Both the position numbers and the translations under genes were made by a program. This document shows, one piece after another, positions 6,670-40,762 of a stretch of DNA of 64,000 bases (the stretch's first letter is position 1; each line of letters starts with the position of its first letter). The notes below the pieces were generated by a model. The model was not told the DNA's origin, did no database searches, and saw only the letters and a list, made by a program, of their open reading frames with translations. The stretch is from an uncultured Desulfospira sp. (GTDB lineage: Bacteria > Desulfobacterota > Desulfobacteria > Desulfobacterales > Desulfobacteraceae): the NCBI GenBank assembly GCA_963663165.1, contig OY760175.1, positions 544,001 to 608,000 on the forward strand. The letters are read 5' to 3'.

Positions 6670-6686
6670 GGCTACAAACAATTGAC

Positions 6687-6838
6687 GTAACTGTTCAGCA
6701 GTGCCCCATCTTCGCTCATTCAGGCCTTCTCACATAGCAAAAGTATGCTACGAAGTCCTGACTAAACAAATATGAAGCACTGATAAACAGTTACGGACCC
6801 TGGTTTTGCTTAGTTTTCAGCATTAGCTGAATAGTTAC
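6687..6838. mobile_element. 152-bp MITE with IS66-like ends and 8-bp TSD CAATTGAC
   Basis: Ends GTAACTGTTCAGC / GCTGAATAGTTAC; CAATTGAC at 6679-6686 and 6839-6846; near-identical inverted copy at 7594-7746. Confidence 0.88.
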
Positions 6839-6841
6839 CAA

Positions 6842-6870
6842 TTGACAATCTTTTTTTCTTGGCCTATGCT
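6842..6870 (+). promoter_or_regulatory. Putative sigma70 promoter of vapBC
   Basis: TTGACA-N17-TATGCT, 36 nt upstream of ATG 6907. Confidence 0.6.
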
Positions 6871-6906
6871 TTGGCATATGATTGAATTAAACAGAAGGTG
6901 CTTACT

Positions 6907-7146
6907 ATGCCAATAGAGCGACATGTGCGGTTGTTTCGGAACGGGCGTAACCAGGCGATAAGAATCCCTCGGGAGTTTGAGCTGGAAGGAAATGAAGCCA
7001 TAATCCGCAAGGAAAAAAACAGGCTTATTGTGGAACCGGTGAAAAAGGCCGGTTTGTTGCATGTTCTTTCAAAATTAAAACCGATTCGTGATGAATTCCC
7101 CAATGTTGATGATAACCTGAAACCATTAGATGATATTGATCTATGA
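6907..7146 (+). CDS. vapB: AbrB/VagC-type antitoxin
   Basis: LFRNGRNQAIRIPREFEL motif; ATGA overlap with the PIN gene. Confidence 0.88.
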   Translation: MPIERHVRLFRNGRNQAIRIPREFELEGNEAIIRKEKNRLIVEPVKKAGLLHVLSKLKPIRDEFPNVDDNLKPLDDIDL

Positions 7147-7553
7147 CTGAAAATCTGTCTTACCTTCTGGACACCAATATCATTTCCGAATTGATTAGAA
7201 ATCCACAGGGCAAATTAACAGATATCATTGCCCTCAAAGGTGAAGACCGAATCTGTACAAGTATTATCGTCGCCTCTGAACTGCGGTTTGGGGCTGAAAA
7301 GAAAGGCTCAGCCCCTCTCACCAGGCAGTTGGAAACGGTGCTTTCGGCAATAAAAATAATGTCTTTGAGAGAACCGGCTGATCGGGCCTATGCAAAATTG
7401 CGAACCCATCTGGAAAAAACAGGCAAACCGATTGGTCCCAATGACATGTTGATTGCAGCCCATGCACTTTCCCTGGGATTAACCCTGGTAACAGCCAATG
7501 AGCGGGAGTTCTTACGTGTACCGGAACTGGCTGTCGAAAACTGGTTAAAATAG
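7143..7553 (+). CDS. vapC: PIN-domain toxin
   Basis: YLLDTNIISE, IGPNDMLIAAHA, LVTANEREF, VENW. Confidence 0.92.
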   Translation: MTENLSYLLDTNIISELIRNPQGKLTDIIALKGEDRICTSIIVASELRFGAEKKGSAPLTRQLETVLSAIKIMSLREPADRAYAKLRTHLEKTGKPIGPNDMLIAAHALSLGLTLVTANEREFLRVPELAVENWLK

Positions 7554-7597
7554 GGGAGGTCGGTGATATACCGCTGCATTTGTTAGAAACAAAGTAA
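7553..7597 (+). pseudogene. Rpn C-terminal tail remnant
   Basis: Translates GEVGDIPLHLLETK*, matching the Rpn end GEVVDIPLHLLEPNR*. Confidence 0.75.
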
Positions 7598-7746
7598 CTA
7601 TTCAGCTAATGCTGAAAACTAAGCAACAACAGGGTCCGTAACTGTTTATCAGTGCTTCATATTTGTTTAGTCAGGACTTCGTAGCATACTTTTGCTATGT
7701 GAGAAGGCCTTAAATGAGCGAAGATGGGGCACTGCACAACAGTTAC
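7594..7746. mobile_element. 153-bp MITE (inverted copy) with 8-bp TSD GAAACAAA
   Basis: Reverse complement of 6687-6838 with a few differences; GAAACAAA at 7586-7593 and 7747-7754. Confidence 0.88.
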
Positions 7747-7788
7747 GAAACAAATAACTGATCCAAAGCAGCAAGGGCATATAAAAAA

Positions 7789-8205
7789 ATGAACGAAAAA
7801 GATATCCGCTGGAAACAGCGGTTTCAAAATTTTAAAAAAGCCCTGGGCCGGCTGACAGAGGCGGTTAATTTGTCTCACCAAAAACAGCTGTCAAATATTG
7901 AACAGCAGGGATTTATAAAGGCCTTTGAATTTACCCACGAACTGGCCTGGAAGGTCATGAAAGATTTTTTTGTTTACCAGGGAAATACCCGGATAACAGG
8001 ATCAAGGGACGCCACAAGAGAAGCATTTCAAAATCAGCTGATTAAAGACGGTGACAACTGGATGGAAATGATCCAGGCCAGAAACAAAGCCGTCCATACT
8101 TATGATGAATCAACCGCCAGTGAAATAATCAGGAAAGTAAACCATACATACCACTCTTTGTTCCTCGAGTTTGAAAAAATGATGCAGGAACGGCATGACG
8201 GATAA
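7789..8205 (+). CDS. HEPN nucleotidyltransferase substrate-binding protein (HI0074 family)
   Basis: DIRWKQRFQNFKKAL, IKAFEFTHELAWKVMKD, RNKAVHTYDE (RX4H). Confidence 0.9.
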   Translation: MNEKDIRWKQRFQNFKKALGRLTEAVNLSHQKQLSNIEQQGFIKAFEFTHELAWKVMKDFFVYQGNTRITGSRDATREAFQNQLIKDGDNWMEMIQARNKAVHTYDESTASEIIRKVNHTYHSLFLEFEKMMQERHDG

Positions 8206-8518
8206 TTCCATCGGCCCGTCTGGATTGTCTCCTGAAACAATTCATAAAATTCATAGTGTGTTTTCCCGTTTTCCCGACATTTACCAGGTTTATCTTTACG
8301 GCTCACGGGCAAAAGGCAATTACCAGCCCGGCTCAGATATTGACCTGGCCATCCAGGGCGAAGCCGTAACACCATCACAATTATACAAAATTGAATCTGA
8401 ACTGGATGACCTGCTGCTGCCATATAAAATAGATCTTTCCTTGTTCAGGCTTATTGAAAACGAGGCGCTTGTACGCCATATCCAACGTGTCGGCAAGATT
8501 TTCTATACCCGCAAATGA
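8195..8518 (+). CDS. Minimal nucleotidyltransferase (MNT) antitoxin
   Basis: LYGSRAKGNYQPGSDIDLA, LDDLLLPYKIDL. Confidence 0.9.
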   Translation: MTDNSIGPSGLSPETIHKIHSVFSRFPDIYQVYLYGSRAKGNYQPGSDIDLAIQGEAVTPSQLYKIESELDDLLLPYKIDLSLFRLIENEALVRHIQRVGKIFYTRK

Positions 8519-8613: not shown

Positions 8614-8883
8614 ATGCCTATAAAAAATTATGTTTCATCCACCCTGTTATCAAAACATACGGCAGCGACGCTTAATTCAATAGAATCCGGTGAAACGGAT
8701 AAAATGGTCATTTTAAAGAACAACACCCCTAAGGCGATTCTGATGTCTTTTGAGTCTTATGAAGCCATGGAAGAAGAAATTGAGGATTTGAGGCTCACAG
8801 CGCTGGCGCTGTCCAGAATGCAGACGTTTGATTCAGCTAAAACAATTTCCCATAAAGAAATGATGGAAAAATTTGCGAAATGA
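8614..8883 (+). CDS. Phd/YefM-type antitoxin
   Basis: VILKNNTPKAILMSFESYE; overlaps the downstream RelE gene. Confidence 0.82.
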   Translation: MPIKNYVSSTLLSKHTAATLNSIESGETDKMVILKNNTPKAILMSFESYEAMEEEIEDLRLTALALSRMQTFDSAKTISHKEMMEKFAK

Positions 8884-9164
8884 CCTGGGAGGTTTTTTAT
8901 CACAAAGATGTCGAGGATGATTTAAAAAGCGTCGGCCCCTCCGCTGCCCGCCGGATCATCCGGACAATTGATAAAAAATTGACAACCGCGCCGGACCGGT
9001 ATGGTTTGCCGCTGGCCCATAATCTGAAAGATTTCTGGAAACTGCGAATCGGTGATTACAGGGTTGTTTACAGACTCATCGACCAGCAAGTGATTGTCTA
9101 TGTTCTCGCCGTCGGCCCCCGGAGAGACAAGGAAATCTACAAAACCGCATCAGAAAGAATCTAA
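8880..9164 (+). CDS. relE: RelE/ParE-family toxin
   Basis: WKLRIGDYRVVY, VLAVGPRRDKEIY. Confidence 0.88.
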   Translation: MTWEVFYHKDVEDDLKSVGPSAARRIIRTIDKKLTTAPDRYGLPLAHNLKDFWKLRIGDYRVVYRLIDQQVIVYVLAVGPRRDKEIYKTASERI

Positions 9165-9288
9165 ACCGCAATCGGCCACCAGGGGGCTTTTTGATAAATA
9201 TGTGGATTTTATTGATGTGTATTCAGAAATAAGCGACCAAGAGCAGCAACAACTTTATGAAACCATCATTCAAAATAAGGAAACGGCT

Positions 9289-9540
9289 ATGTTATCACAA
9301 TATATAAAAGAAAAAGGACGTCAGGAAGGCCGTCAGGAAGGACGCCAGGAAGGCCGCCAGGAAGGCCGCCAGGAAGCAGGGTATGGATTATACTTTAACA
9401 TTATTCATACCATGAAAAAAAACAACCTTCCGGATGACGAGATTGCAAGACTGACAAACCTGGATATCGAAATTATTAAAAAGATAATAGACGGAGAGGT
9501 GGTGGATATTCCGCTGCATCTGCTGGAACCGAACAGGTAG
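9289..9540 (+). CDS. Orphan Rpn C-terminal ORF (RpnS-like putative antitoxin, 83 aa)
   Basis: 9173-9540 is a near-exact copy of the 3' part of 11664-12674; keeps TAAGGA-N7-ATG; 5 versus 12 RQEG repeats. Confidence 0.7.
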   Translation: MLSQYIKEKGRQEGRQEGRQEGRQEGRQEAGYGLYFNIIHTMKKNNLPDDEIARLTNLDIEIIKKIIDGEVVDIPLHLLEPNR

Positions 9541-9543
9541 GGG

Positions 9544-9638
9544 GGGGCAGGATTGCCCTTCTAAATTTAAAATCCTTTGCGCCCTTGCGCCTTTGCGTGA
9601 GAACATAAAAACCGGCTTTCAGCCGTTGATTGAAGCTT
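9544..9638 (+). repeat. About 95-bp inter-module repeat (R-box), copy 1
   Basis: GGGGCAGG..TTCTAAATTYAAAAYCCTTTGCGCCYTTGCGCCTTTGYGTGAGAACATAAAAA..CGGCTTTCAGCCGTTGATTG; other copies at 12675, 13818 (partial), 14616 and 16357. Confidence 0.88.
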
Positions 9639-9811
9639 GCTGCTCCGGTCTCTTCACCATATCAGACACAGTAATACAACCGAAAGCCTCATTGATAATT
9701 CTAAGAAGTATAAAGATTCACCGTATATTAAAATCCGCCACTTGTGATATCTTAATTCTTTAATTATAATGAAACAATGATTAGTGTTCTGATTTAATAC
9801 AAGGACTTATT

Positions 9812-10003
9812 ATGGAAAAGAAAAAATATATATATTTCTTTGATAATGATATGTGGCTTGGCTACTGGGAAGAGTTTCCTGATTATATGACTCAGGGAAA
9901 AACTTTGGAAGAACTCAAATTGAATCTGAAAGATATTCACCATGATATATCCGGTAACCATATACCCTGTGTACGCCATGTTGGAGAAATGGAAATTGCA
10001 TGA
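9812..10003 (+). CDS. hicB: Short HicB-family antitoxin
   Basis: WLGYWEEFPDYMTQGKTLEELKLNLKD. Confidence 0.85.
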   Translation: MEKKKYIYFFDNDMWLGYWEEFPDYMTQGKTLEELKLNLKDIHHDISGNHIPCVRHVGEMEIA

Positions 10004-10176
10004 AAAGAAAAGATCTGATTAGAGATCTTGAACGTATGGGGTGTACCTTTATCCGGCATGGTGGAAAGCATGACTGGTATCAAAATCCTTCTACAAAAGC
10101 CTGTCAACCTGTTCCAAGACATCGTGAAATTAACGAGCTTTTAGCGAAAAATATCCTTAAAAAATTAAGCAAATAA
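10000..10176 (+). CDS. hicA: HicA-family toxin (58 aa, not in the ORF track)
   Basis: Hand translation MKRKDLIRDLERMGCTFIRHGGKHDWYQNPSTKACQPVPRHREINELLAKNILKKLSK*; ATGA overlap with hicB. Confidence 0.9.
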   Translation: MKRKDLIRDLERMGCTFIRHGGKHDWYQNPSTKACQPVPRHREINELLAKNILKKLSK

Positions 10177-10206
10177 GAATCCTTCACCGCTTAATAGAGG
10201 TGATAA

Positions 10207-10293
10207 ATGATGATACGCGAAATTATAAGTCTGAAAACAAATCAAATAACAATTAACATACCCGCCAATATGGTAAATCAAGAGCTTGAATAA
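10207..10293 (+). pseudogene. Truncated copy of the 12901-13164 antitoxin-like gene
   Basis: 10195-10290 nearly identical to 12889-12984; MMIREIISLKTNQITINIPANMVNQELE*. Confidence 0.7.
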
Positions 10294-10420
10294 CCCATGT
10301 GTAATTGGTAAGTGAAAGGACCATACGTAAATAATGGGGGATCATCTATATCATCCCAAGACAAAGAAAAAACATCTGTCTCAAAAAATATAATCAAAAA
10401 ATTACTATGGAGATAGCCAT

Positions 10421-10501
10421 CTTGAAAAAGGTGAAACCAGAATTTATGCCGTCATTGACTGTAGAAAGAATCCCGCTTGGATAAGAGAAAGATTGCAATA
10501 A
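10421..10501 (+). pseudogene. ParE/RelE-type toxin C-terminal remnant
   Basis: LEKGETRIYAVIDCRKNPAWIRERLQ*. Confidence 0.6.
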
Positions 10502-10569
10502 GAATGATGGTCTTCTGGTCACTTGTGTGGTCTCTTGCAGGAAAGTGAGGTTATACGTCAGGAACTGTG

Positions 10570-10712
10570 ACCATATTTGTTCGCAATGCCGGCAAAAAGG
10601 GGCTCTTCGAAGAAATGATAGCCCAGATTGATCAACCTGGAACTTAGCATAGTTCAAAAAATAGCCAACAATGAAAAGGTTGATATCCCGATACATCTAC
10701 TGGAGCCGAAAG
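10570..10712 (+). pseudogene. Divergent, frameshifted Rpn C-terminal remnant
   Basis: TIFVRNAGKKGLFEEMIAQI / NLELSIVQKIANNEKVDIPIHLLEPK aligns to the Rpn tail. Confidence 0.7.
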
Positions 10713-10822
10713 GGTGGTTTACAGACTCGTCGACCAACAAGTGATTGTCTATGTTCTCGCCGTCGGCCCTCGAAGAGACAAAGAAATCTACAAAACCGCA
10801 TCAGAAAGAATCTAAACCGCAA
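10712..10822 (+). pseudogene. Duplicated 3' end of relE (about 9060-9171)
   Basis: Near-identical nucleotide copy ending GAAAGAATCTAAACCGCAA. Confidence 0.85.
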
Positions 10823-10853: not shown

Positions 10854-11660
10854 TTGAGTTATAAAGATACTTATTACAATTTGGTCACTCATGAGAATAC
10901 AGAAGGGATCAAAAAAATTATCAAAAATGCAGGTTATTACGATTCGGAGACCATTAATAAAATTCAGTATAATGAACTGTACGGCCTACCTCATTTATTT
11001 GTAATTGTTGATTCTGATGATTATACCCATGGCCGTTATGCTTTGCTTGATGGTATTTTTGTAGAAATCGATTCGATTATCCCTCAATGGCATGGGAAGT
11101 TTTATCTTGGGATAATGATACTCAGAAAGCCCAAGAACGAAAAAATCAAACAATTTATCGATCCTGATAAAGATGTTAAACATGAGTTGCATCATTTGCA
11201 TCTTTTGATACAGCACATTGACACTCACACTGATTATATCGAAAGTTCAATGAAATACAACGCAGGATATTGTGAAACCCAAGACCTGGATAAAAGTATC
11301 GAATTCGAAATAAACAAAATTTTTTCATTGGAAGTCCCAGCCCTGATTTCAGATTTCAATATGGGAGAACAGGACTTATTATCTTATGAAAATGGAATTG
11401 TTACAAAAATAACCGTCGACAATGAAAATGAATTTTTACGATACAAAGTGGGGGGATATTTAACTGCATTAAGCAGCTGTTATGCTAAGAGGTTCCCCAA
11501 AAAAGAGAATCAAATCAAACATACAATTGAAATGGAAGTCAACAAACAAGGAGAATTTCTTTTCGGCACTAACTGTATGGTATTATTGTTAAGATCTCAG
11601 ATAGAATGTTTTTTTCTATTAAAGATTAAAGGCACCTGTTATGAGGTTGGGAATGTTTAA
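10854..11660 (+). CDS. Hypothetical protein with an HExxH motif
   Basis: 268-aa AT-rich ORF with KHELHHL; ends 3 nt before the Rpn gene; start uncertain. Confidence 0.65.
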   Translation: MSYKDTYYNLVTHENTEGIKKIIKNAGYYDSETINKIQYNELYGLPHLFVIVDSDDYTHGRYALLDGIFVEIDSIIPQWHGKFYLGIMILRKPKNEKIKQFIDPDKDVKHELHHLHLLIQHIDTHTDYIESSMKYNAGYCETQDLDKSIEFEINKIFSLEVPALISDFNMGEQDLLSYENGIVTKITVDNENEFLRYKVGGYLTALSSCYAKRFPKKENQIKHTIEMEVNKQGEFLFGTNCMVLLLRSQIECFFLLKIKGTCYEVGNV

Positions 11661-11663: not shown

Positions 11664-12674
11664 ATGATAACCCACGACGGTAACTTTAAAAATTTATTTC
11701 AAGATTTTCCCAAAGAAACACTCCGGTGGCTGCTCCCCAGTGCGGAACAAAACTGGGGCAAAATTATTGCCATTGATTTCACACGTCAGGAGCCTAAAAA
11801 ACACCACCTCTCAGATGCGGGGCTGGTACTGGACCTTCCGATACTGTTCCATTTTGAAAATCAACAATTGCTATTGTGGCTGGTGGAGTTCCAGGAAGAC
11901 AAATCAAAATTTTCCATATACAAACTGCTCCGGTACACCACCGACATGATGGAGGCCCATCCTGATGCATTGGTAGTTCCGACCGTGTTGTTCACCGATA
12001 GAAAAAAATGGCATAAATCTGTACTCACTGAACTTCACGCACAAATCAACGACCGCTTGTTTCTTCACTTTGAATATGTGTTTCATAAGCTGTTTGACTT
12101 GAATGCAAGGGATTATTACAATGTGGATAATCCGGTGGTAAAAATTCTTTTGCCTAAGATGAACTATAAAAAGGAAGAGCGAATTGAGGTTATCCACCAG
12201 GCATACAAAGGGCTTTTTCAATTGGCCACCAGGGGGCTTTTTGATAAATATGTGGATTTTATTGATGTGTATTCAGAAATAAGCGACCAAGAGCAGCAAC
12301 AACTTTATGAAACCATCATTCAAAATAAGGAAACGGCTATGTTATCACAATATATAAAAGAAAAAGGACGCCAGGAAGGTCGCCAGGAAGGACGCCAGGA
12401 AGGTCGCCAGGAAGGACGTCAGGAAGGACGCCAGGAAGGACGCCAGGAAGGACGCCAGGAAGGACGCCAGGAAGGACGCCAGGAAGGACGCCAGGAAGGA
12501 CGCCAGGAAGCAGGGTATGGATTATACTTTAACATTATTCATACCATGAAAAAAAACAACCTTCCGGATGACGAGATTGCAAGACTGACAAACCTGGATA
12601 TCGAAATTATTAAAAAGATAATAGACGGAGAGGTGGTGGATATTCCGCTGCATCTGCTGGAACCGAACAGGTAG
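11664..12674 (+). CDS. Rpn/YhgA-like PD-(D/E)XK nuclease (putative anti-phage)
   Basis: HDGNFKNLF, VEFQ, LLRY, VVPTVLF and (RQEG)n C-terminal repeat; internal SD-ATG at 12339. Confidence 0.82.
   Translation: MITHDGNFKNLFQDFPKETLRWLLPSAEQNWGKIIAIDFTRQEPKKHHLSDAGLVLDLPILFHFENQQLLLWLVEFQEDKSKFSIYKLLRYTTDMMEAHPDALVVPTVLFTDRKKWHKSVLTELHAQINDRLFLHFEYVFHKLFDLNARDYYNVDNPVVKILLPKMNYKKEERIEVIHQAYKGLFQLATRGLFDKYVDFIDVYSEISDQEQQQLYETIIQNKETAMLSQYIKEKGRQEGRQEGRQEGRQEGRQEGRQEGRQEGRQEGRQEGRQEGRQEGRQEAGYGLYFNIIHTMKKNNLPDDEIARLTNLDIEIIKKIIDGEVVDIPLHLLEPNR
12369..12512 (+). repeat. 12 x 12-bp coding tandem repeat (RQEG)
   Basis: CGCCAGGAAGGA units; 5 units at 9319-9378. Confidence 0.95.
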
Positions 12675-12769
12675 GGGGCAGGATTGCCCTTCTAAATTCA
12701 AAACCCTTTGCGCCTTAGCGCCTTTGTGTGAGAATATATCAAACAGCCTTCAGCCGTTGATTGAAGCTT
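12675..12769 (+). repeat. R-box copy 2
   Basis: Directly follows the Rpn stop codon, as in copy 1. Confidence 0.88.
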
Positions 12770-13164: not shown

Positions 13165-13167
13165 TCC

Positions 13168-13350: not shown

Positions 13351-13355
13351 GCATT

Positions 13356-13755: not shown

Positions 13756-13760
13756 CCCCG

Positions 13761-33862: not shown

Positions 33863-35416
33863 ATGAAATTTTCTGATTCAATAAAATCCGGATATGTCAT
33901 TGTGATTGGTATCTACACGGTGCTGTGTATATTCCTTTATCAGTCTGCAGCAGCTAATCTGCTCAAATGGTGGAAAAAGGATGATTATTCCTATTGCTAT
34001 CTAATACCTTTCATTGTTTTATATCTGCTCTGGGAAAAGAAGAATTCCTTTGCTGTTGAAACTATCCGGCCTCAGTGGCGGGGGATGATTCCATTTTTAT
34101 TGGGCATTGTGTTTTACTGGCTCGGAGAGTTGGGAGGGGAGTTTTATTCACTTTATTTATCCTTCTGGCTGGTCATCTTTGGCCTTTGCGTTATGCTAAT
34201 GGGAATGGATAAAGTCAAAACCATTATCTTCCCTTTATGTATGATCTTTACCATGTTTCCGCTTCCCAATTTCATTAATAACAGGATTACCCTGCAACTG
34301 AAGATCCTTTCAACGAAACTTGGCGTGTTAATGATGCAGGCCTATGGCATGAGCGCGTACCGGGAAGGCAATGTCATAGATCTTGGCTTTACTCAGCTTC
34401 AAGTGGTGGATGCCTGTTCGGGCCTGAGATATCTGTTTCCAATGATTGTGCTAAGTATTCTGGTTGCCTATTTTTATCCGGCCCGGTTTTGGAAACGGCT
34501 TATTGTTGTTGTATCTTCGCTTCCTTTAACTATTCTTAGCAACAGTCTCAGGATTGCATTGACAGGGATTTTATCTGAAAAATTTGGTGCAAAAGTGGTG
34601 GAAGGGTTTTTCCATGATTTTGAAGGTATCCTGATATTTATGTTCACCCTTGGGATATTGCTTTTAGAAATCTGGATTATTAGGCTGATATTCCCTGAGC
34701 CTAAGAAAATTCAAGATGACACCTCGATTGTGGAAACTGAATTAGTTGAGGCTGTTGGAAAAGAAAAAGGGACATCTTTAAAATCGCCTAAGTTTGTTGT
34801 TTCTGTCGTTTTGTTGGTCTTGACAATTGGCTTGTCCCAAGGAATTGAATTCAGGGAAGCTATCCCTATAAGTCAGTCTTTTGATAAGTTTCCAAAGACC
34901 ATCGGGGAATGGAGCGGAGAGCGGCAATTGATGGAGAAAAGGTTCATTGATGAACTGGACCTGAGTGACTATTTCATGGCCGATTACAAAACTGGAGATG
35001 GAAAGGCAGTCAATTTTTATGTGGCCTATTATGAAAGCCAGCGAAAAGGGGAGTCTATCCATTCTCCGGCGACCTGTCTTCGGGGCGGGGGTTGGGATTT
35101 TAAACAGGCCGGGAGCCGGAATATTACCCTGGAAGATGGAACGGTCATGCCGGCAAACCGGGCTTTGATTGAAAAGGCACCGGTTAAGCAATTGTCTTAC
35201 TACTGGTTTCCCTGCCGGGGACGGATTTTGACCAATGCATATCAGATGAAAATTTATAACTTCTGGGATGCCCTGACACGGCAGCGGACGGATGGGGCTT
35301 TGGTCCGGGTGATTACACTGGTGTATGAAGATGAAACGATAGAAGATGCTGAAAAACGGATACAGGGGTTTATTTCTGATGTTCAGCCGGTGTTGCGGAC
35401 TTTTTTGCCGGAGTGA
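33863..35416 (+). CDS. Exosortase fused to EpsI domain (XrtD-like)
   Basis: REGNVIDL, VVDACSGLR (catalytic Cys), NSLRI, FFHDFEG; EpsI HSPATCL.GGGW, RTDGALVRV. Confidence 0.9.
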   Translation: MKFSDSIKSGYVIVIGIYTVLCIFLYQSAAANLLKWWKKDDYSYCYLIPFIVLYLLWEKKNSFAVETIRPQWRGMIPFLLGIVFYWLGELGGEFYSLYLSFWLVIFGLCVMLMGMDKVKTIIFPLCMIFTMFPLPNFINNRITLQLKILSTKLGVLMMQAYGMSAYREGNVIDLGFTQLQVVDACSGLRYLFPMIVLSILVAYFYPARFWKRLIVVVSSLPLTILSNSLRIALTGILSEKFGAKVVEGFFHDFEGILIFMFTLGILLLEIWIIRLIFPEPKKIQDDTSIVETELVEAVGKEKGTSLKSPKFVVSVVLLVLTIGLSQGIEFREAIPISQSFDKFPKTIGEWSGERQLMEKRFIDELDLSDYFMADYKTGDGKAVNFYVAYYESQRKGESIHSPATCLRGGGWDFKQAGSRNITLEDGTVMPANRALIEKAPVKQLSYYWFPCRGRILTNAYQMKIYNFWDALTRQRTDGALVRVITLVYEDETIEDAEKRIQGFISDVQPVLRTFLPE

Positions 35417-35454
35417 GAAATGGGATATGAGACTTGGGATTTGGGGTATGGGGT

Positions 35455-35485
35455 GTTGGGTTTCGCTGCGCTCTACCCAACCTAC
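35455..35485 (-). repeat. GTAG-REP, third family
   Basis: Minus strand GTAGGTTGGGTAGAGCGCAGCGAAACCCAAC; degenerate copy near 37272-37302. Confidence 0.75.
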
Positions 35486-35575
35486 GGGTTGCGGTTATGT
35501 TACAAACAATATGCGCCATTGATTATTGAACAATGAGGCTGTCATCTGTATATTCAAATAAAAAAAGGAGATGAC

Positions 35576-35809
35576 ATGGAAGGCATATCAGAAAAAATAT
35601 ATGAACAAGCAATCAATCTTCCCATAGATGAACGGCTTATACTTATAGATAGGTTGCTGATTAGTACCAATTTACCGACTCAAAAAGATATTGATCTGGC
35701 ATGGTCAGCCGAAGTTGAACGCCGTTGCCAAGCACTTGACCGTGGAGAAGCAAGACTTATCTCCGGAGAGGAGGTCTTTGAAAAAATTCGGAAGCGATTT
35801 TCAAAATGA
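35576..35809 (+). CDS. Addiction-module antitoxin (TIGR02574-like)
   Basis: LPIDERLILIDRLL..AWSAEVERR..GEEVF. Confidence 0.85.
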   Translation: MEGISEKIYEQAINLPIDERLILIDRLLISTNLPTQKDIDLAWSAEVERRCQALDRGEARLISGEEVFEKIRKRFSK

Positions 35810-36093
35810 GATTCAGCTTTCATGAAATTGCTGAAAAAGAATTTATTGACGCCATTGAATATTACGAAGAATGCCAGGCCGGGTTAGGCTTGAGATTCTC
35901 TGAAGAAGTTTTCGCCACAATTGAACGAGTATGTGAGCATCCATATGCTTGGACAGGGATTGATGCAAAAACCAGGCGTTGCCTCACAAACAAGTTCCCG
36001 TACGGAATTCTTTATCGGATAGTTAACAACCACATCAGGATTATGGCGGTAATGCATCTGCATAGAAAGCCGGACTACTGGAAAAGTAGATAA
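35806..36093 (+). CDS. ParE/RelE-family toxin
   Basis: RRCLTNKFPYGILY, IMAVMHLHRKPDYWKSR. Confidence 0.88.
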   Translation: MRFSFHEIAEKEFIDAIEYYEECQAGLGLRFSEEVFATIERVCEHPYAWTGIDAKTRRCLTNKFPYGILYRIVNNHIRIMAVMHLHRKPDYWKSR

Positions 36094-36113
36094 AAAGTGG
36101 CGGTGTAAATGAG

Positions 36114-36280
36114 GTGCTTGAATATATTAAACTGAATCCTGGGAAAAATACACGGCAGATACAGCAGGCGTTAAATATTCCTCGAAGAACTTTGGAGCGG
36201 ATGCCAAAAGAACTGAGGGATAAGAAGTCGATTGAGTTTCGGGGAACCCCTAAAGTTGGTGGTTATTTCTTTGTTATTGA
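36114..36280 (+). pseudogene. Winged-HTH C-terminal remnant
   Basis: LEYIKLNPGKNTRQIQQALNIPRRTLER..IEFRGTPKVGGY resembles the terminal wHTH of Fic/ATP-binding proteins. Confidence 0.55.
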
Positions 36281-36285
36281 GGTAT

Positions 36286-36302
36286 CAATGTCATTAACTT
36301 AA
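36286..36302. mobile_element. Solo IS4 terminal inverted repeat
   Basis: CAATGTCATTAACTTAA, identical to the IRs at 21256 and 22749. Confidence 0.8.
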
Positions 36303-36337
36303 GCATCGAGGATGTTATTTGCAGGTCTCCTTTGAAT

Positions 36338-36493
36338 TTAGAAGATTTAAAAATGCCACCAGGAAATATGTTCGAGGCACTAAAGGGAGACCGAAAAGGG
36401 ACTTATAGTATACGAATCAATGATCAATATAGAGTCTGTTTTAAATGGTCAGAATCGGCCCCTGATTTTGTAGAGATAACCGACTATTATTAA
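36338..36493 (+). pseudogene. higB: HigB toxin, 5'-truncated
   Basis: LEDLKMPPGNMFEALKGDRKGTYSIRINDQYRVCFKW..VEITDYY*. Confidence 0.82.
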
Positions 36494-36496
36494 TTA

Positions 36497-36639
36497 GTGT
36501 TTGAACGAAAAGTCACCCATCTGCTGTGTTGCAGGAAAAGTTGCAATCCTCACAACCCCATGGTTGCTCCGGTTGCAACTTTTCCTGCGCCTTGCATCTG
36601 GGCAACTTTTCGTCCAAACACGGGTTTCCGTTCAGGCAC
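36497..36639. mobile_element. 143-bp MITE-like element between higB and higA
   Basis: Ends GTGTTTGAACGAAAA / TTTCCGTTCAGGCAC, flanked by TAATTA on both sides; nested internal inverted repeats. Confidence 0.78.
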
Positions 36640-36655
36640 TAATTATGAGGTGAGT

Positions 36656-36973
36656 ATGATTAGAATACCAACACATAGAGAGCCTACTCATCCAGGCGAA
36701 ATGCTAATTGAAGAGTTTTTAACCCCGATGGGAATAATCCAAAAGGAACTGGCAAATTCAATACATGTTCCATATCAAAGGGTTAATGAAATTGTAAAAG
36801 GTAAGAGAGGCATAACGCCGAGCACAGCCCTTCGATTGGCAAAATTTTTTGGAATCTCGGAAGATTTCTGGATGAATTTACAATTAAGATGGGATTTGTA
36901 TCAGGCAAAGTTAACTGAAAGTAATGAACTGAAAAATATTAAAACCTACTGCGTACCCGAGTTACAGTCATAA
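36656..36973 (+). CDS. higA: HigA antitoxin
   Basis: PTHPGEMLIEEFL, RVNEIVKGKRGIT, ALRLAKFFG, FWMNLQ; GAGGTG RBS. Confidence 0.92.
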   Translation: MIRIPTHREPTHPGEMLIEEFLTPMGIIQKELANSIHVPYQRVNEIVKGKRGITPSTALRLAKFFGISEDFWMNLQLRWDLYQAKLTESNELKNIKTYCVPELQS

Positions 36974-36981: not shown

Positions 36982-37092
36982 GCCCAACTACGCGATATAT
37001 CGATTATTGTTACCAGGAATGGCAATGATTTTAGAGGGTCTGAATTGGATGTTTATTCACCCGAAACGTTTGTTGAGCGTTATGGGAAGTGA
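36982..37092 (+). pseudogene. PIN-domain C-terminal remnant
   Basis: IIVTRNGNDFRGSELDVYSPETF. Confidence 0.6.
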
Positions 37093-37127
37093 GGTAATGG
37101 GGGCTCTTGATTTAGATTACTTGAACG

Positions 37128-37305
37128 ACAACCGACAGACTGAGCTTTGATCCGGGTGATTATCCTGGTGGAATCCACTGATGATGCTGAAAGAAGGGGG
37201 CAGGGGTTTATTTCTGATGTTCAGCCAGTGTTGCGGACTTTTTTGCCGGAGTGAGAAATGGGATATGGGGTGTTGGGTTTCGTTGCGCTCTACCTAACTT
37301 ACGGG
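37128..37305 (+). repeat. Degenerate duplicate of the exosortase 3' end and trailer (about 35277-35488)
   Basis: CAGGGGTTTATTTCTGATGTTCAGCC..GCCGGAGTGAGAAATGGGATATG..REP. Confidence 0.9.
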
Positions 37306-37429: not shown

Positions 37430-37705
37430 ATGCCCGAGCGAATAATACATATAAATTCCCCGGTAAAAGAAAATATTCTACTGTCAATAAAAGAAACAAA
37501 GGATGAATTCACAAAAAACGTTCTGTTTTTATCTGCGTTACATTTCTATAGGAATCGGCGTTTATCATTAGGGAAGGCGGCCGAGTTGGCAGGTTACACA
37601 AGAATTGAGTTTATCGAGAGACTCAAACAGGAGAAAGAATATATTTTTGATTATAGTGATGATGAAATGGATGAAATTTTTTCCGACGCAAAAAAGATAA
37701 AATGA
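37430..37705 (+). CDS. UPF0175-family antitoxin
   Basis: ALHFYRNRRLSLGKAAELAGYTRIEFIERL. Confidence 0.85.
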   Translation: MPERIIHINSPVKENILLSIKETKDEFTKNVLFLSALHFYRNRRLSLGKAAELAGYTRIEFIERLKQEKEYIFDYSDDEMDEIFSDAKKIK

Positions 37706-37896
37706 AGATTGTGTCGAATACCACGCCAATTATCTCTTTAGCCTCAATCGGGCAGCTTAATATATTTTTGTTAATTGCCAAAGAAAAGAATATAATCAAA
37801 TCCACAAAGCCATTGCTTGATGAGATGATTTCAAAGGGTCGATGGTATTCAAAAACGGTCTATCTACAATTTCTTGAACGGGCCGGCGAGATGTAG
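37702..37896 (+). pseudogene. DUF3368 PIN-like toxin with internal deletion
   Basis: N-terminal MKIVSNTTPIISL joined directly to C-terminal LLIAKEKNII..KPLLDEM..AGE; only 64 aa. Confidence 0.72.
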
Positions 37897-37967
37897 ATTT
37901 ATTCACTTTTTATGGGATTTCCTGTTTTAATATCAAAAAAACCAAGAGCATGAAACATATCTTGCTC

Positions 37968-38011
37968 GGAGCGGGCTATGTCCGCGAATCGCGGGCATGG
38001 CCCGCTCCTAC
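37968..38011. repeat. Inverted REP doublet (second family)
   Basis: GGAGCGGGCTATGTCCGCGA A TCGCGGGCATGGCCCGCTCCTAC. Confidence 0.82.
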
Positions 38012-38044
38012 CCAAATTGGTGTTTATTTTTCTGTTATTGAGAT

Positions 38045-38310
38045 AGATGGGAAGCCGGAATGAGAACCGGGACATGGGACTTGGGGCTTGGATTCAACCC
38101 CTTCGGGATTTCATGGTTTTAAACTACAGAGGGCACGGAAGGTTTGGCTTGCGCTAAACTGCACAGAGGGTGGGGCCGGCGTCGATAGTCCGGCTACAAG
38201 AGGGTGTTCATGATGATAAAGGGAACGGATAGATATCAGGGCATTAAGATGCTTTGTTTACAAAAGTGTCCGACTGGCGCATCTTGGTGTGTATAGGGAG
38301 GTGTATGATG
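38045..38310 (+). repeat. Shared cassette leader, copy 1
   Basis: Highly similar to 39079-39310 up to and including the start codon. Confidence 0.9.
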
Positions 38311-38661
38311 AAAACAGGCATTGCCGATTCCGTCAAAATAAATGACAAATACGCTCAGATTTTATCAACCTTTGACGTTGATTTGCAATCTGCGGTTGAT
38401 GATGCGCTACAAAAGTATTTGATTGAGCAGATAAGAATAAAAATCGTTACCTTGAAACAAAAAGTCAGCGTTTTTAAAAAAAAATATGGATGTGATTATG
38501 AAACATTCCATAAAAAAATATCAGAGGATGAAGCATATGTGAATCAAGTTGAATGCAACATTGATAAAATGTGGGAAACCGATCTGTTTGAGTGGGAATT
38601 ATGCCATAAAGGGATTAAGGATTGGACAGATCAACTTCAGAATGTTTTGATAATGTTGTAA
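38308..38661 (+). CDS. Putative antitoxin
   Basis: FKKKYGCDYETF..DLFEWE; same pattern as the 15627 ORF. Confidence 0.65.
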   Translation: MKTGIADSVKINDKYAQILSTFDVDLQSAVDDALQKYLIEQIRIKIVTLKQKVSVFKKKYGCDYETFHKKISEDEAYVNQVECNIDKMWETDLFEWELCHKGIKDWTDQLQNVLIML

Positions 38662-39014
38662 AAGCTGCGCACCAAATTTTTCAAGAACTTGATTATGATC
38701 TGGATGTGACACCTGTCCGGTCAATATTAAATATCAAGTGCCGGTATGGGGCATATACGGTTTTTATTTCAGAATTGTTCAGCGACAATACACGAAAATA
38801 CAGTTATTATGTGTTACATGAAAATTGGGTTGAAGCCGGCTTTGACAATGCGCCGGATCCCAGGGCTATTCGGCTCAAATATGGTAGAATTGGTAAAGAG
38901 CATGCCGGACAGAATATTTCCCATTTACATCTGGAAAATAAAACAAAAATTGAGTTAACTCCTGAAATATCATTTTTTGATTTCGTTGAGTGGATTCAAA
39001 ATAACCTTTCTTAA
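38622..39014 (+). CDS. DUF6516/TumE-like putative toxin
   Basis: RKYSYYVL..GFDNAPD..HLH; start uncertain. Confidence 0.6.
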   Translation: MDRSTSECFDNVVKAAHQIFQELDYDLDVTPVRSILNIKCRYGAYTVFISELFSDNTRKYSYYVLHENWVEAGFDNAPDPRAIRLKYGRIGKEHAGQNISHLHLENKTKIELTPEISFFDFVEWIQNNLS

Positions 39015-39078
39015 GATAGCTGTTCAATCTAAAGTTCTTGGGCTTGCAAAGGCAGAGACTGCTGACCACCGCAGAGCC

Positions 39079-39310
39079 AGATGGGAAGCCGGAATGAGAA
39101 CCGGAACATGGGACTTGGGCTTGGATTCAATCCCCTTTGGTATTTCATGGTTTTAAACCACAGAGGACACCGAGGTTTGGCTGTCGCCAAACTGCACAGG
39201 AGGGTGTTCATGATGATAAAGGGAAGGGACAGATATCAGGGCATTAAGATGCTTTGTTGACAAAAGTGCTTGAGTGGCGCATCTTGGTGTGTATGGGGAG
39301 GTGTATTATG
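39079..39310 (+). repeat. Shared cassette leader, copy 2 (TTGACA at 39257, GGAGG RBS)
   Basis: Matches 38045-38310. Confidence 0.9.
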
Positions 39311-39508
39311 AGAACCAATGTAGTATTAGATGACCGGTTGATTCAGGAGGCCCTGGCCTTAAGCGGATTAAAAACTAAAAAAGATATTATTTCAATGGCA
39401 CTGCAGGAATTTGTTGATTCCCGGAAAAGGAAAAACTTGCTGGAACTTTCGGGGAAAATTGAATTCCGCCATGATTATGATTATAAAGCCCTCCGACAGG
39501 ACAAATGA
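39308..39508 (+). CDS. vapB: VapB-type antitoxin
   Basis: MRTNVVLDDRLIQEAL..KTKKDII..YDYKALR. Confidence 0.88.
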   Translation: MRTNVVLDDRLIQEALALSGLKTKKDIISMALQEFVDSRKRKNLLELSGKIEFRHDYDYKALRQDK

Positions 39509-39891
39509 TACTTGTCGATACGTCAGTTCTGATCGATTTCTTTAAAGGTGTTTCAAACCCCTCAACCGATAGCTTAAGAAGGATTATTGAACAGCAGATT
39601 CCCTTTGGGATTACCTCTGTCATTTATCAGGAAATTTTGCAGGGGGCCAAAGATCGAAAAGAATATAATCTCTTGAATGAATACCTGGAATGCCAAAAAT
39701 TTTTTCATCCTTTAGACCTGATAGGCTCTTATGCGCAAGCCGCTATAATATATTTTTCCTGCAGAAAAAAAGGAATCACCATTAGAAGCACAATTGACTG
39801 CCTGATTGCTCAAGTTGCTATTGAGCATGGCCCGCTCCTACCCAAAATCAAAATCGGTTTCAAGATTCGTTACAAATTGTGCATAGGATAA
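39505..39891 (+). pseudogene. vapC: VapC PIN toxin with its C-terminus replaced by REP-derived sequence
   Basis: MILVDTSVLIDF..TIDCLIAQVAIEH, then REP sequence; last acidic motif absent. Confidence 0.75.
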
Positions 39892-39918
39892 GGGAGATTG
39901 GTCCGGCGTTGCTGAACC

Positions 39919-40314
39919 TTATTCCCAGTCTTCAAGAATGAGGCCGGATATCCGGATGAATTCCCGGGTATTATGGGTAACGAGGACCGCATCATGGGCG
40001 CGGGCAATTGCGGCAATAAGCATATCATTGGGGCCGATCAGGTTGCCCTGGGCTGTCAGATCGGCTCTGATAAGACCGTATTCATCCGCACATTGATCAT
40101 CAAAGGGCAGGCTTTGCAAAGGGGCGAAGAACAATCTTAAGGCTTGAAGGTTGGCATCTACCCGGTTGCTGTTTCTTGCACCGAAAAGCAGCTCAGCTTT
40201 AACAATACTACAGACCGCAATTTCGGAAGGGGAGCTGGTGCGAAAATGGTGTTCAACAGATTGAGATGTGCCGTTAAGAAAATTGATGCAGACGTTGGTA
40301 TCCAGAAGAAACAT
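39919..40314 (-). CDS. vapC: VapC PIN toxin
   Basis: FLLDTNVCI, IGPNDMLIAAIA, LVTHNTREF, LEDW. Confidence 0.92.
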   Translation of the reverse strand: MFLLDTNVCINFLNGTSQSVEHHFRTSSPSEIAVCSIVKAELLFGARNSNRVDANLQALRLFFAPLQSLPFDDQCADEYGLIRADLTAQGNLIGPNDMLIAAIARAHDAVLVTHNTREFIRISGLILEDWE

Positions 40315-40315
40315 T

Positions 40316-40540
40316 TTATTCAAACCCTGTTCTTTGTTCTATATCTAATTGATCCGGTCGGACGAGGGGCTCTCCCTGCCATGATCCGGCCAGGTCAAAA
40401 TAATTTTCCGGCCAGTCATTGATGGTCTCTTTTTTTACGAGATAGGCCAAATATTTTGAGGTGGACAATCCGGCCTCCTTGGCTTTTTGTTTAAACAGGA
40501 TCGCCAGATTGTCCGGTATGTAACAGTGTAATTGCGCCAT
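40316..40540 (-). CDS. Ribbon-helix-helix-type antitoxin
   Basis: MAQLHCYIPD..AKEAGLSTSKYL..WPENYF..GSWQGEPL; GGAGG RBS. Confidence 0.78.
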   Translation of the reverse strand: MAQLHCYIPDNLAILFKQKAKEAGLSTSKYLAYLVKKETINDWPENYFDLAGSWQGEPLVRPDQLDIEQRTGFE

Positions 40541-40696
40541 GTATTCCTCCAAATATATTTATTGTATGTGTTTTTTATGGTAATGAAATGTTCAGGGTGT
40601 GTCAAGTCTGGTGAGCATGCTTTTTGTGGCCGTGGTCTGTTAGCGAATTTTGGCTTATTTAATTTGTCGTTCAGGCCGGTGGATTGGCCGTTAGAT

Positions 40697-40728
40697 GGTG
40701 GGCAGCGCTTCGCTTTTGCCCACCCTAC
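40697..40728 (-). repeat. GTAG-REP (first family)
   Basis: GGTGGGCAGCGCTTCGCTTTTGCCCACCCTAC. Confidence 0.82.
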
Positions 40729-40762
40729 GGCGCCAACAATAACTATAAAATATAGATCATAG

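Follow-up and report, generated by a model that had tools for sequence, protein, structure and literature searches.

Sedentary chromosomal integrons and clusters of attC sites lacking integron-integrases (CALINs) consist of small, co-oriented cassettes, are rich in toxin–antitoxin (TA) modules, and are split by a reiterated element of ~100–200 nt. Arrays of orphan modules, each a displaced C-terminal tip with its immunity gene, have reportedly been described downstream of rhs and cdiA by Koskiniemi and colleagues (in 2014), surface-polysaccharide loci are said to be switched by recombination in their conserved flanks (Holt and colleagues, in 2020), and homology-facilitated illegitimate recombination was reportedly defined in the laboratory, in transformable bacteria, by de Vries and Wackernagel in 2002. 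Here, we set beside these systems a locus of an uncultured Desulfospira sp. (genome G000), in which two arrays of TA modules, A and B, stand at the ends of an exopolysaccharide (EPS) gene cluster; the window, that is, the whole stretch of 64,000 nucleotides that was analysed (G000:C1:544001–608000), lies inside a single 6.74-Mb contig. With a probability of about 0.6, we read these arrays as zones of recombination scars, formed without an integrase, at the two borders of an EPS cluster of the XrtD/PEP-CTERM type that can be replaced horizontally.

Conserved core-gene flanks that give homology, a content that turns over among close relatives, and no integrase also mark the hotspots of horizontal gene transfer free of mobile genetic elements, as characterized in a 2017 study (PMC5635113); the present arrays likewise lie between conserved core genes and differ in content among relatives. 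Measured against these hotspots, the locus departs in being double, with one array per EPS border, in holding nearly only co-oriented TA modules, and in carrying a record of past events, made up of duplicated border-gene ends and linkers used repeatedly, that would not be expected under the double-crossover model. Transposase sequences in or near the hotspot comprise an IS4-family gene within the EPS core (21269–22405, minus strand), a DDE transposase fragment in array A of the related genome G001, and copies of a miniature inverted-repeat transposable element (MITE); no tyrosine or serine recombinase is present there. With the rhs/cdiA arrays, the locus has in common tandem toxin/antidote modules which stand behind a main gene, are split by its 3′ fragments, and would be re-usable by homologous recombination. 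Here, however, none of the anchors (wecB, xrtD, DUF218) is a toxin gene, the cassettes are type II TA pairs that stand alone with their own starts, no orphan module is fused to a main-gene 3′ core, and the Pfam scans of the arrays contain no Rhs or CdiA domain. As in polysaccharide-locus switching, a whole low-GC sugar cluster is exchanged between conserved flanking genes, but at this locus both junctions additionally carry TA arrays and stacked border-gene scars. Unlike integrons and CALINs, the arrays have neither an adjacent IntI nor two or more attC sites, judged with the genome's own attC class, and their reiterated elements are gene tails and linkers with variable left edges. They also differ from islands targeting gene 3′ ends in having no integrase and in their repeats, which are 42–139 nt long at 84–92% identity. 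In the literature on TA genes at polysaccharide loci, our search yielded nothing that describes such an arrangement, and a search joining homology-facilitated illegitimate recombination with toxin–antitoxin returned one simulation study and nothing describing it. A TA gene at the pneumococcal capsule locus was considered as a precedent and set aside, since, according to the relevant passage of PMC4986459, the TA genes there belong to an integrative and conjugative element and not to the cps locus.

For comparison, two genomes of the same genus (G001 and G002) and one of another genus (G003) were used. On the plus strand, the gene order of the window is fcl, rmlA, rmlC, rmlD, rmlB, a gene for a TviB-like dehydrogenase, wecB, array A (6.7–17.2 kb), manC with further EPS genes, xrtD, array B (35.4–40.7 kb), wecA, PrsT, and polysaccharide export genes. 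The conserved left anchor of array A is wecB (5584–6669, plus strand; TIGR00236, 312.8 bits; 94% amino acid identity in G001), and the conserved right flank begins with wecA (40763–42403, plus strand; TIGR02380; 96% amino acid identity in G001). Between them, the variable EPS core (17294–33752, plus strand; Pfam and NCBIfam) comprises manC (17294–18706), sulfotransferases, a flippase, a Wzy-like gene and glycosyltransferases, followed by the anchor of array B, a gene for an XrtD exosortase of the VPLPA-CTERM type with a fused EpsI domain (33863–35416, plus strand; TIGR04152, 601 bits; Pfam). The GC content is ~0.50 in the flanks, 0.37–0.45 in the arrays, and 0.29–0.42 in the EPS core.

Domains of array open reading frames (ORFs) were called by Pfam at E ≤ 0.01, supplemented by NCBIfam, PADLOC and blastx; the blastx subjects, used to define fragments, were all G000 ORFs without the arrays plus the ORFs of the G001 locus. 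Pfam matches were obtained for 13 of 28 ORFs in array A and 10 of 19 in array B. As the initial annotation had claimed, there are two TA arrays among EPS genes; together they hold ~11 intact and 10–12 broken TA/defence modules, mostly on the plus strand, the exceptions among annotated modules being the ORFs 10394–10696 and 13421–13813 and the pair 39919–40552. Type II TA families over the Pfam cut-offs are MazE/PIN, HepT/MNT (twice), Phd/ParE, Unstab_antitox/ParE, VapB/PIN and UPF0175/DUF3368, and several modules match candidate defence families of PADLOC (PDC-S09, PDC-M44A/B, PDC-S70). PIN genes number 30 in G000, three of them within these 16 kb.

The reading of the arrays as border scars rests foremost on the comparison with G001, in which wecB and wecA are 53 kb apart. 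The flanks of the two genomes align at 91.5% (762–6668) and 92.3% (39918–43812) nucleotide identity; the EPS core yields no high-scoring segment pair with the G001 locus between 17068 and 34561, and the exosortase found there is 33% identical to that of G000. The arrays lie exactly at the two conserved/variable borders of the EPS cluster (17.1–35.3 kb). They had been proposed to be exchange hotspots, and their content does differ between these genomes: many segments are common (88–96% identity) but stand in a different order, accompanied by genome-specific segments, and several cassettes are 94–96% identical, above the level of the flanks. Inside the gene DUF218b, which ends array A, the match to G001 weakens from 94% to 80% identity at ~16723, with nothing matching after 17067, so that the left limit of the replaced EPS segment falls inside a gene of which both genomes hold alleles.

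What is repeated are border or neighbour genes (wecB, Rpn, ParE, DUF218, xrtD), in full or as tails or heads, together with two intergenic linkers, namely a ~190-nt "trailer" behind the Rpn frame in array A and the xrtD tail with a 72-nt junction, J, in array B. At the right border, the scars consist of 3′ tails of xrtD, the last gene of the cluster. At the left border, they include 5′ heads and complete copies of DUF218, the first gene of the cluster, each together with its upstream linker, and events coming from the side of wecB leave behind 3′ tails of this gene, of ParE and of Rpn. In G001, array A (~20 kb) contains 10 trailers, four Rpn-type tails, two whole DUF218 genes, and two DUF218 5′ heads (local coordinates 12961–13242 and 20673–21035). 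Because the arrays coincide with the EPS borders, and because DUF218 is represented among the left scars by 5′ heads as well as complete genes, many "anchor copies" are better read as scars of locus swaps than as traces of cassette capture. That most fragments are gene 3′ ends holds as a predominance: 3′ tails are present of Rpn (9169–9540, 10561–10710, and the last 25 nt at 16330–16354), ParE (10711–10822), a MarR-like gene (36096–36296), HigB (36314–36490), a 165-aa ORF (36986–37124) and xrtD (37125–37254), accompanied by 5′ heads or internal pieces (10210–10290, a PIN head at 13168–13350, 13338–13487, and a cut-down DUF3368).

The repeats themselves are real and beyond chance. The Rpn tail with its trailer (9169–9695 vs. 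12219–12837, E 0), the trailer with DUF218 and the intergenic tail (14615–15458 vs. 16355–17214, 76%, E 0), and the xrtD tail with J (35278–35488 vs. 37125–37305, E 3e-38) recur in the window, as do the ParE tail (9060–9171 vs. 10711–10822) and the segment 10190–10291 vs. 12884–12985, both 95% identical, and the pairs 12801–12889 vs. 15476–15564 and 38045–38315 vs. 39079–39315; in the whole-genome comparison, the tail, trailer, DUF218 and xrtD repeats of the arrays occur locally. The view that modules are separated by such reiterated tails applies to a minority of boundaries only, with five trailers in array A and none in B, and two copies of xrtD tail plus J in B. Nor is Rpn, which had been taken for an anchor gene, a conserved flank gene.

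At both borders, relatives allow ancestral junctions to be recognized. On the left, wecB in G002 is directly followed by a MazE/PIN pair and then by sugar genes, which marks the wecB–MazE/PIN junction as ancestral. In G000, this junction is kept, with a MITE inserted, and the pair (VapC-type PIN, 6898–7553, plus strand; Pfam) opens array A. In G001, a ~3.9-kb insert (HepT, truncated Phd, a 291-aa ORF, Rpn and more) intervenes and ends in a 118-nt wecB tail with a mutated stop codon (86% identity over 118 nt), behind which the pair is found. The order in G003 is wecB, an Rpn mid-fragment, a DUF5615 toxin-like gene, an Rpn tail, DUF218, gmd, a full Rpn gene, an fcl-like epimerase gene, and DUF218, which makes the Rpn–DUF218 unit an old resident of the left border, duplicated in G003 too.

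On the right, xrtD and wecA are adjacent in the genomes G004 and G018. A metagenome scan with wecA returned 43 loci (best 53% amino acid identity), contained no strain-level variants, and was used for the xrtD–wecA spacing only; the loci L054/L064, L058/L059 and L050/L060 are likely the same organism twice. Where both genes are visible, the spacing is ≤~133 bp in 17 of 20 loci, the remaining three having a single 23S_rRNA_IVP (four-helix bundle) gene in a gap of 585–700 bp (L047:9511–9879, L051:9448–9819, L074:9483–9845). In view of this tight junction in G004, G018 and the 17 metagenome loci, the fillings of G000 (5.3 kb), G001 (6.6 kb) and G003 (4.8 kb) are derived, and the genes in the three distant loci indicate that the same spot accepts small genes in other lineages. 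The filling of G003 (L025:5296–10133) consists of three tandem AAA-ATPase_like/PDDEXK_9 genes, at the place where G000 and G001 have TA cassettes. Downstream of the exosortase gene of G001 follow a 42-nt xrtD-type tail with J, an 85-aa ORF, a 165-aa ORF, a 139-nt xrtD tail with J, and an Unstab_antitox/ParE pair.

It is this xrtD tail with J that behaves as a re-used linker. The first copy in G000 comprises the last 139 nt of the intact gene and the 72-nt J (35278–35488, plus strand; repeat search), and the stretch 35267–36285, which includes the Unstab_antitox/ParE pair, is 95.3% identical to the G001 scar unit; the left junction of that G001 scar (TGA|ACGACAACCGAC) is identical in the second scar of G000. 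The tail measures 139 nt in two scars and 42 nt in the first J copy of G001. The right edge of J lies at the same nucleotide (...CCTACGGG|) in all four copies of the two genomes, before three different downstream cassettes. Since the same tail plus J joins three cassettes, and belongs to an intact gene in one genome but to a scar in the other, at least one crossover must have taken place within the xrtD tail/J.

The trailer shows a comparable use in array A. Its nhmmer profile finds five copies in array A of G000 (four full, one partial) and 10 in that of G001, all on the plus strand, with none in array B; among 121 family genomes four match, of which only G000 and G001 are multi-copy, the other two matches measuring 31–35 nt. 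According to the alignment of the copies with their flanks, the left edge of the trailer is the end of the Rpn frame (...DIPLHLLEPNR*), kept to differing lengths, and on the right it runs in four classes into DUF218, the 76-aa ORF, MNT/HepT and, in G001, HEPN/MNT, the classes being alignable, as we read them, almost up to the next start codon. The trailer is thus an intergenic linker, "Rpn stop to next ATG", re-used before different genes. In G001, a 916-nt [trailer-HEPN/MNT] unit is present twice at 98.4% identity, extending from one trailer to the next.

A different kind of joint is found at 9168/9169, where the ParE stop region is connected to codon ~186 of Rpn. A microhomology of 3–4 nt, CAA(T), marks this as an illegitimate deletion, and both parental sequences remain in the downstream copy. 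The relation of breakpoints to repeats, on which the proposed exchange model depends, was likewise found: the 13 shared, mostly unique blocks have 25 ends inside the arrays, and 16 of these ends are no more than 30 bp away from a segment that G000 carries repeatedly, with 38% expected (binomial P 0.008, the ends not being independent).

According to our reading, incoming DNA from related strains would undergo a RecA-type crossover in a border gene or linker copy on one side, and the other side would be closed either homologously or by an illegitimate microhomology join, the latter amounting to homology-facilitated illegitimate recombination. Should the illegitimate join fall inside the resident anchor gene, this gene would be restored from the donor and its old end left as a scar; scars and linkers would then provide extra homology for later crossovers, unequal exchange and duplication, through which the arrays could grow and shuffle. 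The accumulation of TA modules would follow from their small size, their self-stabilising nature, and the tolerance of modules that share the orientation of the operon, and no dedicated recombinase or attC-like site would be involved, MITE-like and palindromic dispersed repeats adding breakpoints. Selection against polar or antisense effects in a single-strand operon would account for the shared orientation just as well. The combination of one homologous anchor with one microhomology join, typical of homology-facilitated illegitimate recombination, fits the arrangement "intact anchor–new DNA–old tail" in G001 and the CAA(T) junction; in contrast to the laboratory-defined process, it would here be deduced from end products alone. 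In this respect, the exchange via a homologous anchor and an illegitimate joint that the initial annotation had put forward is largely plausible, supported as it is by the G001 arrangement, the re-use of tail plus J, and the CAA(T) join, even though many of its anchor copies are better explained as locus-swap scars. If the reading is true, the locus would be an unusually legible record of how an integrase-free hotspot forms, each EPS swap leaving the outer end of the prior border gene as the next homology, and two kinds of phage resistance, surface-glycan change and TA/abortive-infection modules, would be physically tied by travelling on one recombining segment.

Several points weigh against this reading or narrow it. 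The breakpoint enrichment is moderate, and MITEs may favour the same intergenic gaps. The sharp common right edge of J and the alignable trailer classes are what a site-specific process leads one to expect and form the strongest argument for something more specific; general recombination accounts for such edges only via common descent of the linker copies or selection on regulatory linkers. Some duplications are local, with copies 95–98% identical and one of them a deletion derivative, and some of these duplicates could be purely intragenomic. With three genomes of the genus, polarity rests on one informative pair (G000 vs. G001) and one outgroup (G002), by which most array events are unpolarisable, and the best match of the metagenome scan, at 53%, is no close relative. 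The listed short-read contigs end at repeats, so that the order of repeat-bounded blocks is without read support. DNA uptake, finally, would be deduced from the end products; ComEC and DprA are present in G000 but are uninformative here, as the same families match in 10 and 11 of 14 control genomes.

As to the claim of an integrase-free locus, it stands for the window, where none of the 97 tyrosine recombinase matches, the two serine recombinase matches and the 55 attC-like sites (of the genome's own class) of G000 is located; it does not extend to the genome, which carries an IntI (4194663–4195604; TIGR02249, 456 bits, cut-off 265) at a distance of 3.65 Mb. In the equivalent locus of G001, none of 35 tyrosine recombinase matches is found, none of five serine recombinase matches (both genomes) lies in either locus, and the Pfam scans of the array ORFs contain no recombinase domain. 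Elements of ~130 nt are reiterated next to IntI, and an nhmmer profile built from eight of them yielded the 55 sites, mostly in three arrays (4.18–4.19, 1.86–1.92 and 5.54–5.61 Mb) with few scattered singles, the nearest being 21 kb upstream of the window. Twenty sites fold, as expected, into a long and imperfect hairpin with AAC...GTT as its closing sequences, and 6 of the 20 pairs show compensatory changes. A covariance model from the genome's own attC sites, run with filters off, reached a best value of 13.7 bits (E 0.06) in the window, at 16341–16419; this match was rejected as an attC site, being two degenerate palindromic-repeat arms inside a trailer. A structural scan for R″/R′ cores with folding gave 0 and 2 candidates in the genome's known attC arrays, i.e., a failed positive control, and was discarded; its only matches in the TA arrays were palindromic MITE copies. 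Array sequence outside the listed repeats has no second copy in the genome and, therefore, no cassette is common to the TA arrays and the integron arrays. The complete chromosomal integron of G000 extends over G000:C1:4178000–4195604, the further arrays being those at 1.86–1.92 and 5.54–5.61 Mb, and an IntI is encoded in G001, too (460 bits).

A dedicated integron-like cassette system, in which the linkers would be true sites cut and joined by IntI, by an Rpn-type PD-(D/E)XK nuclease or by another enzyme, and cassettes would be moved singly, is improbable. It would account well for the four J copies that end at the same base before three different cassettes, for the four trailer classes before different genes, and for the [trailer-cassette] unit duplicated at 98.4% in G001; an Rpn-like gene and three to four Rpn tails in array A, a full Rpn gene in the equivalent locus of G003, and the IntI of the genome would supply candidate enzymes, and recombination initiated by RpnL has been speculated upon in the pertinent part of PMC10400941. 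Yet, attC sites of the class present in this genome are missing from the window, the trailer represents a degenerate form of a dispersed palindromic repeat and is confined to array A of G000 and G001, the left edges of the tails vary (25, ~150 and ~370 nt for Rpn; 42 and 139 nt for xrtD), a minority of boundaries carry a linker, and the scars include whole genes and 5′ heads; the Rpn-like protein, moreover, stays below the family cut-offs, and any nuclease activity of it is putative. The integron-like accumulation system of the initial annotation is, as a dedicated system, not supported; no site or enzyme is implicated, and dispersed repeats and local deletions contribute to the arrays. Equally doubtful is the variant in which the linkers (Rpn tail plus ~190-nt trailer; xrtD tail plus J hairpin) are portable homology landing pads of ~150–300 nt, a functional integron analogue run by general recombination, possibly triggered by an Rpn-type nuclease, whose cassettes are excised, duplicated, re-inserted and co-transferred with switches of the EPS as phage receptor. 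An origin from decayed site-specific islands which targeted the 3′ ends of wecB and xrtD and later lost their integrases has in its favour the classical footprint of intact gene, foreign DNA and displaced 3′ end, seen with the wecB tail of G001 and with the xrtD tails; against this, neither locus holds an integrase or a remnant of one, the repeats are long and diverged (84–92% over 139 nt; 86% over 118 nt) and not short, near-identical att cores, the tail lengths differ, the inserted units are TA cassettes of 0.5–2 kb, tRNA genes are absent from the arrays, and the left-border scars are 5′ heads and whole genes, all of which makes such islands a still more improbable source.

Turnover of an old TA island by purely intragenomic processes (tandem duplication, deletion, and rearrangement by MITEs or other repeats), with no incoming DNA, is unlikely as well, although the ParE tail, the Rpn tail and the 10190–10291 repeat are local only and 95–98% identical to their partners, one copy arose from its neighbour by a deletion at microhomology, and MITEs or dispersed repeats stand at many block ends. 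The copies of DUF218a/b and of the xrtD tail, at 74–84%, are more diverged than the flanks of the two species (8–9%) and, thus, look like alleles from different lineages; in addition, the EPS core was replaced outright, and several cassettes are, at 94–96%, more similar than the flanks. That the tails and trailers stem from mis-assembled repeats is very unlikely indeed. The listed contigs of the source-like short-read run X1 do stop at repeats, and one joins the trailer at 12738 to that at 14682; however, the eight listed contig pieces of this run match unique segments of G000 and several repeat-to-unique junctions with no difference, the window lies in a single contig, and the copies are diverged (76–98%), unlike identical repeats that have been collapsed or expanded. 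The separate assembly G001 shows the same kinds of repeats, and two further runs (X3 and X5, "organism B"), which may include the source of G001 itself, reproduce G001-type joints. The run X6 contributed scattered pieces only, regions that no contig covers were given no weight, and a joint 7820→16819 in X1 was disregarded, one of its sides measuring 25 nt.

The Rpn-like gene of array A deserves a separate comparison, as its tails make up part of the scars. In the study of RpnL and RpnS by Zhong et al. 2023 (PMC10400941), the Rpn C-terminus is described as carrying 4-aa repeats, which begin 8–20 residues after an internal Met; how many repeats there are differs from strain to strain, and an RpnL was blocked by an RpnS only if both had the same number. 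The same study speculates that RpnL may initiate recombination generating small tail homologues and duplicated rpn genes (PMC10400941). In G000, the full 336-aa gene has 12 GRQE repeats and the orphan tail five, with a Met nine residues before the repeats, so that the variable C-terminal repeat of RpnL/RpnS is found here, too, as is a separate small tail homologue. In contrast to the RpnL/RpnS pair of that account, the N-terminal domain lies below the family cut-offs (PF04754, 16.8 bits with cut-off 21; TIGR01784, 39 bits with cut-off 52), and the orphan tail stands upstream of the full gene, fused to a ParE stop region by deletion. Membership of the Rpn family is, for this N-terminal domain, only partly shown; tblastn against the bona fide Rpn gene of G003 gives E 5e-13 at 25% identity. 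Because repeats and Met fit the genes-within-genes architecture, orphan Rpn tails may be retained antitoxin-like genes and not mere debris.

Behind the MazE/PIN pair, array A continues on the plus strand, unless stated otherwise, with a HepT-like/MNT pair (7789–8518; Pfam), whose HepT gene is 96.4% identical in nucleotide sequence to G001. The MNT gene (8222–8515) is absent beside the 96%-identical HepT-like gene of G001 and of the "organism B" runs, a clean difference of ~295 bp which leaves a toxin-type gene without its usual partner. A Phd/ParE pair (8614–9164; Pfam) precedes the orphan Rpn C-terminal tail (9169–9540), which matches 12219–12674 and the C-terminal part of TIGR01784, and trailer copy 1 of class b (9543–9695; nhmmer E 1e-36, alignment). 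A cassette of a 63-aa ORF and a HicA toxin gene (9812–10176; Pfam HicA_toxin) is present in G000 only, the segment 9696–10189 having no G001 match. The following copy of 12884–12985 (10190–10291; 95% identical repeat, blastx) is the 5′ head, residues 1–27, of the 76-aa ORF cassette. A second-type Rpn tail remnant (...DIPIHLLEP) with the first ~40 nt of a trailer (10561–10710) matches three tail-plus-trailer units of G001, is 100% identical over 10670–10710, and ends at 10710, where the local ParE 3′ tail copy of 10711–10822 begins.

The segment 10854–12674, with the 268-aa ORF and the divergent Rpn-like gene, is 88.9% identical to G001 in nucleotide sequence; its matches to TIGR01784 and Transposase_31 are below cut-off. 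The 268-aa ORF (10854–11660) matches none of the families of Pfam, NCBIfam or PADLOC and does not resemble its Rpn-like neighbour. Trailer copy 2 (class b; nhmmer, alignment) with an extension (12674–12889) leads into the 76-aa ORF cassette and a PIN N-terminal fragment (12904–13350; blastx; positions 1–47 of 120 of the Pfam PIN profile). An ORF of 130 aa with no Pfam match (13421–13813, minus strand; 84% amino acid identity to a 131-aa G001 ORF) is followed by a partial trailer of class c (13812–13873; nhmmer E 7e-11, alignment) and by an MNT/HepT pair between trailers (13977–14610; Pfam), with 13824–14726 being 91.6% identical to G001 22990–23905, where trailers also stand on both sides. Trailer copy 3 with DUF218a and the intergenic tail (14615–15458) is an older, diverged copy of the left border unit, matching 16355–17214 at 76% and having no close G001 allele (75–78%). 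The segment 15464–15564 copies the class-b extension (93% identical to 12801–12889), and both extensions contain a promoter-like site (10 of 12 positions), TTGAAA-N17-TATAGT at 12834–12862 and TTGAAA-N17-TATATT at 15509–15537. A TumA/TumE pair (15627–16303), of which TumE is over the Pfam cut-off and TumA is recognized by NCBIfam at 32 bits (cut-off 100) and by PADLOC PDC-M44A, lies in a region (15561–16723) that is 94.1% identical to G001. The array closes with the current left border unit, made up of the last 25 nt of the Rpn tail, trailer copy 4 and DUF218b (16331–17214; repeat search, nhmmer, alignment, G001 comparison).

In array B, again on the plus strand except for its distal module, the first xrtD tail and J are followed by the Unstab_antitox/ParE pair (35576–36093; Pfam), which is 99–100% identical in amino acid sequence to G001. 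The stretch 36096–36973 (blastx, Pfam, repeat mask) comprises the MarR-like and HigB 3′ fragments, an insertion of a dispersed repeat, and a HigA-like helix-turn-helix (HTH) gene. The dispersed repeat (36479–36654; 107 copies, BLAST mask) stands between the HigB fragment and HigA and encodes the N-terminal part of the 158-aa "HTH" ORF (36497–36973). Next come the 3′ end of the 165-aa ORF, the xrtD tail scar (37125–37254) and J copy 2 (37255–37305), together 36986–37305, the tail being 84% and J 94% identical to copy 1. A UPF0175 antitoxin gene with a cut-down DUF3368 of 64 aa (37430–37896; Pfam; positions 120–161 of 162 of the PADLOC PDC-S70 profile) is found in G000 only. A local repeat of ~270 nt (38045–38315, with its other copy at 39079–39315; repeat search, genome BLAST), which contains a dispersed repeat of ~79 nt, adjoins a 135-aa ORF and a TumE-like gene (38254–39014; weak TumE match, E 0.0078; 92–98% amino acid identity to G001). 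In the VapB/PIN pair (39254–39891; Pfam), the 3′ end of PIN is replaced by a dispersed repeat from ~39825 (mask 39822–39871), with blastx covering residues 1–112 of a 133-aa G001 ORF. The distal module adjoining wecA, a PIN gene with a 78-aa partner (39919–40552, minus strand; Pfam), is 93–100% identical in amino acid sequence to G001 and falls within the right flank block of 92.3% identity.

J terminates in a hairpin, GTTGGGT-N13-ACCCAAC, with CTAC behind it, a form like that of repetitive extragenic palindromic (REP) elements, at 35455–35488, 37259–37305 and G000:1994075. Hairpin plus CTAC occur only three times in the genome, two of them in array B, for which reason J was rejected as a member of a REP family. 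As a remnant of a tRNA gene it was rejected, too, ARAGORN and Rfam (gathering thresholds) having detected a single tRNA gene in the window, for tRNA-Gly (59989–60063), which lies outside both the arrays and J. Within J, GGGATATGGGACTTGGG represents a motif that is dispersed widely, with ~290 short BLAST matches.

The R-box of the trailer, with a core of ~38 nt, had been named among the elements that separate the modules of array A. Genome-wide, this core forms the right-hand arm of a palindromic repeat with ~25 copies, behind which a small hairpin stands; what only G000 and G001 have, among the 121 family genomes, is the trailer in multiple copies, the array-A trailers being degenerate copies of the palindromic family. 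The trailer hairpin is terminator-like on the minus strand only, at four copies. The arms of the family read CTCACGCAAAGGCGCAA... / ...CTTTGCGCC...GCGTGAGA and precede the hairpin, as at 42479–42565 and ~25 other genome sites; in most dispersed copies, the hairpin stands between A and T runs, and one full copy lies just upstream of prsT.

Palindromic MITE copies of 153 bp at 6686–6838 (plus strand) and 7594–7747 (inverted) bracket MazE/PIN like a composite element. This highly active MITE has 137 BLAST matches in the genome, the 40 listed ones being 95–100% identical; the copy at 6686–6838 has AATTGAC on both sides and is missing at this site in G001. Other dispersed repeats are that at 36479–36654, 37943–38024, and parts of 38045–38315/39079–39315. 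Outside the arrays, two near-perfect palindromes of 63 nt (52417–52479 and 53254–53316), which are 95% alike, stand on either side of a DnaJ-domain gene (52618–53256).

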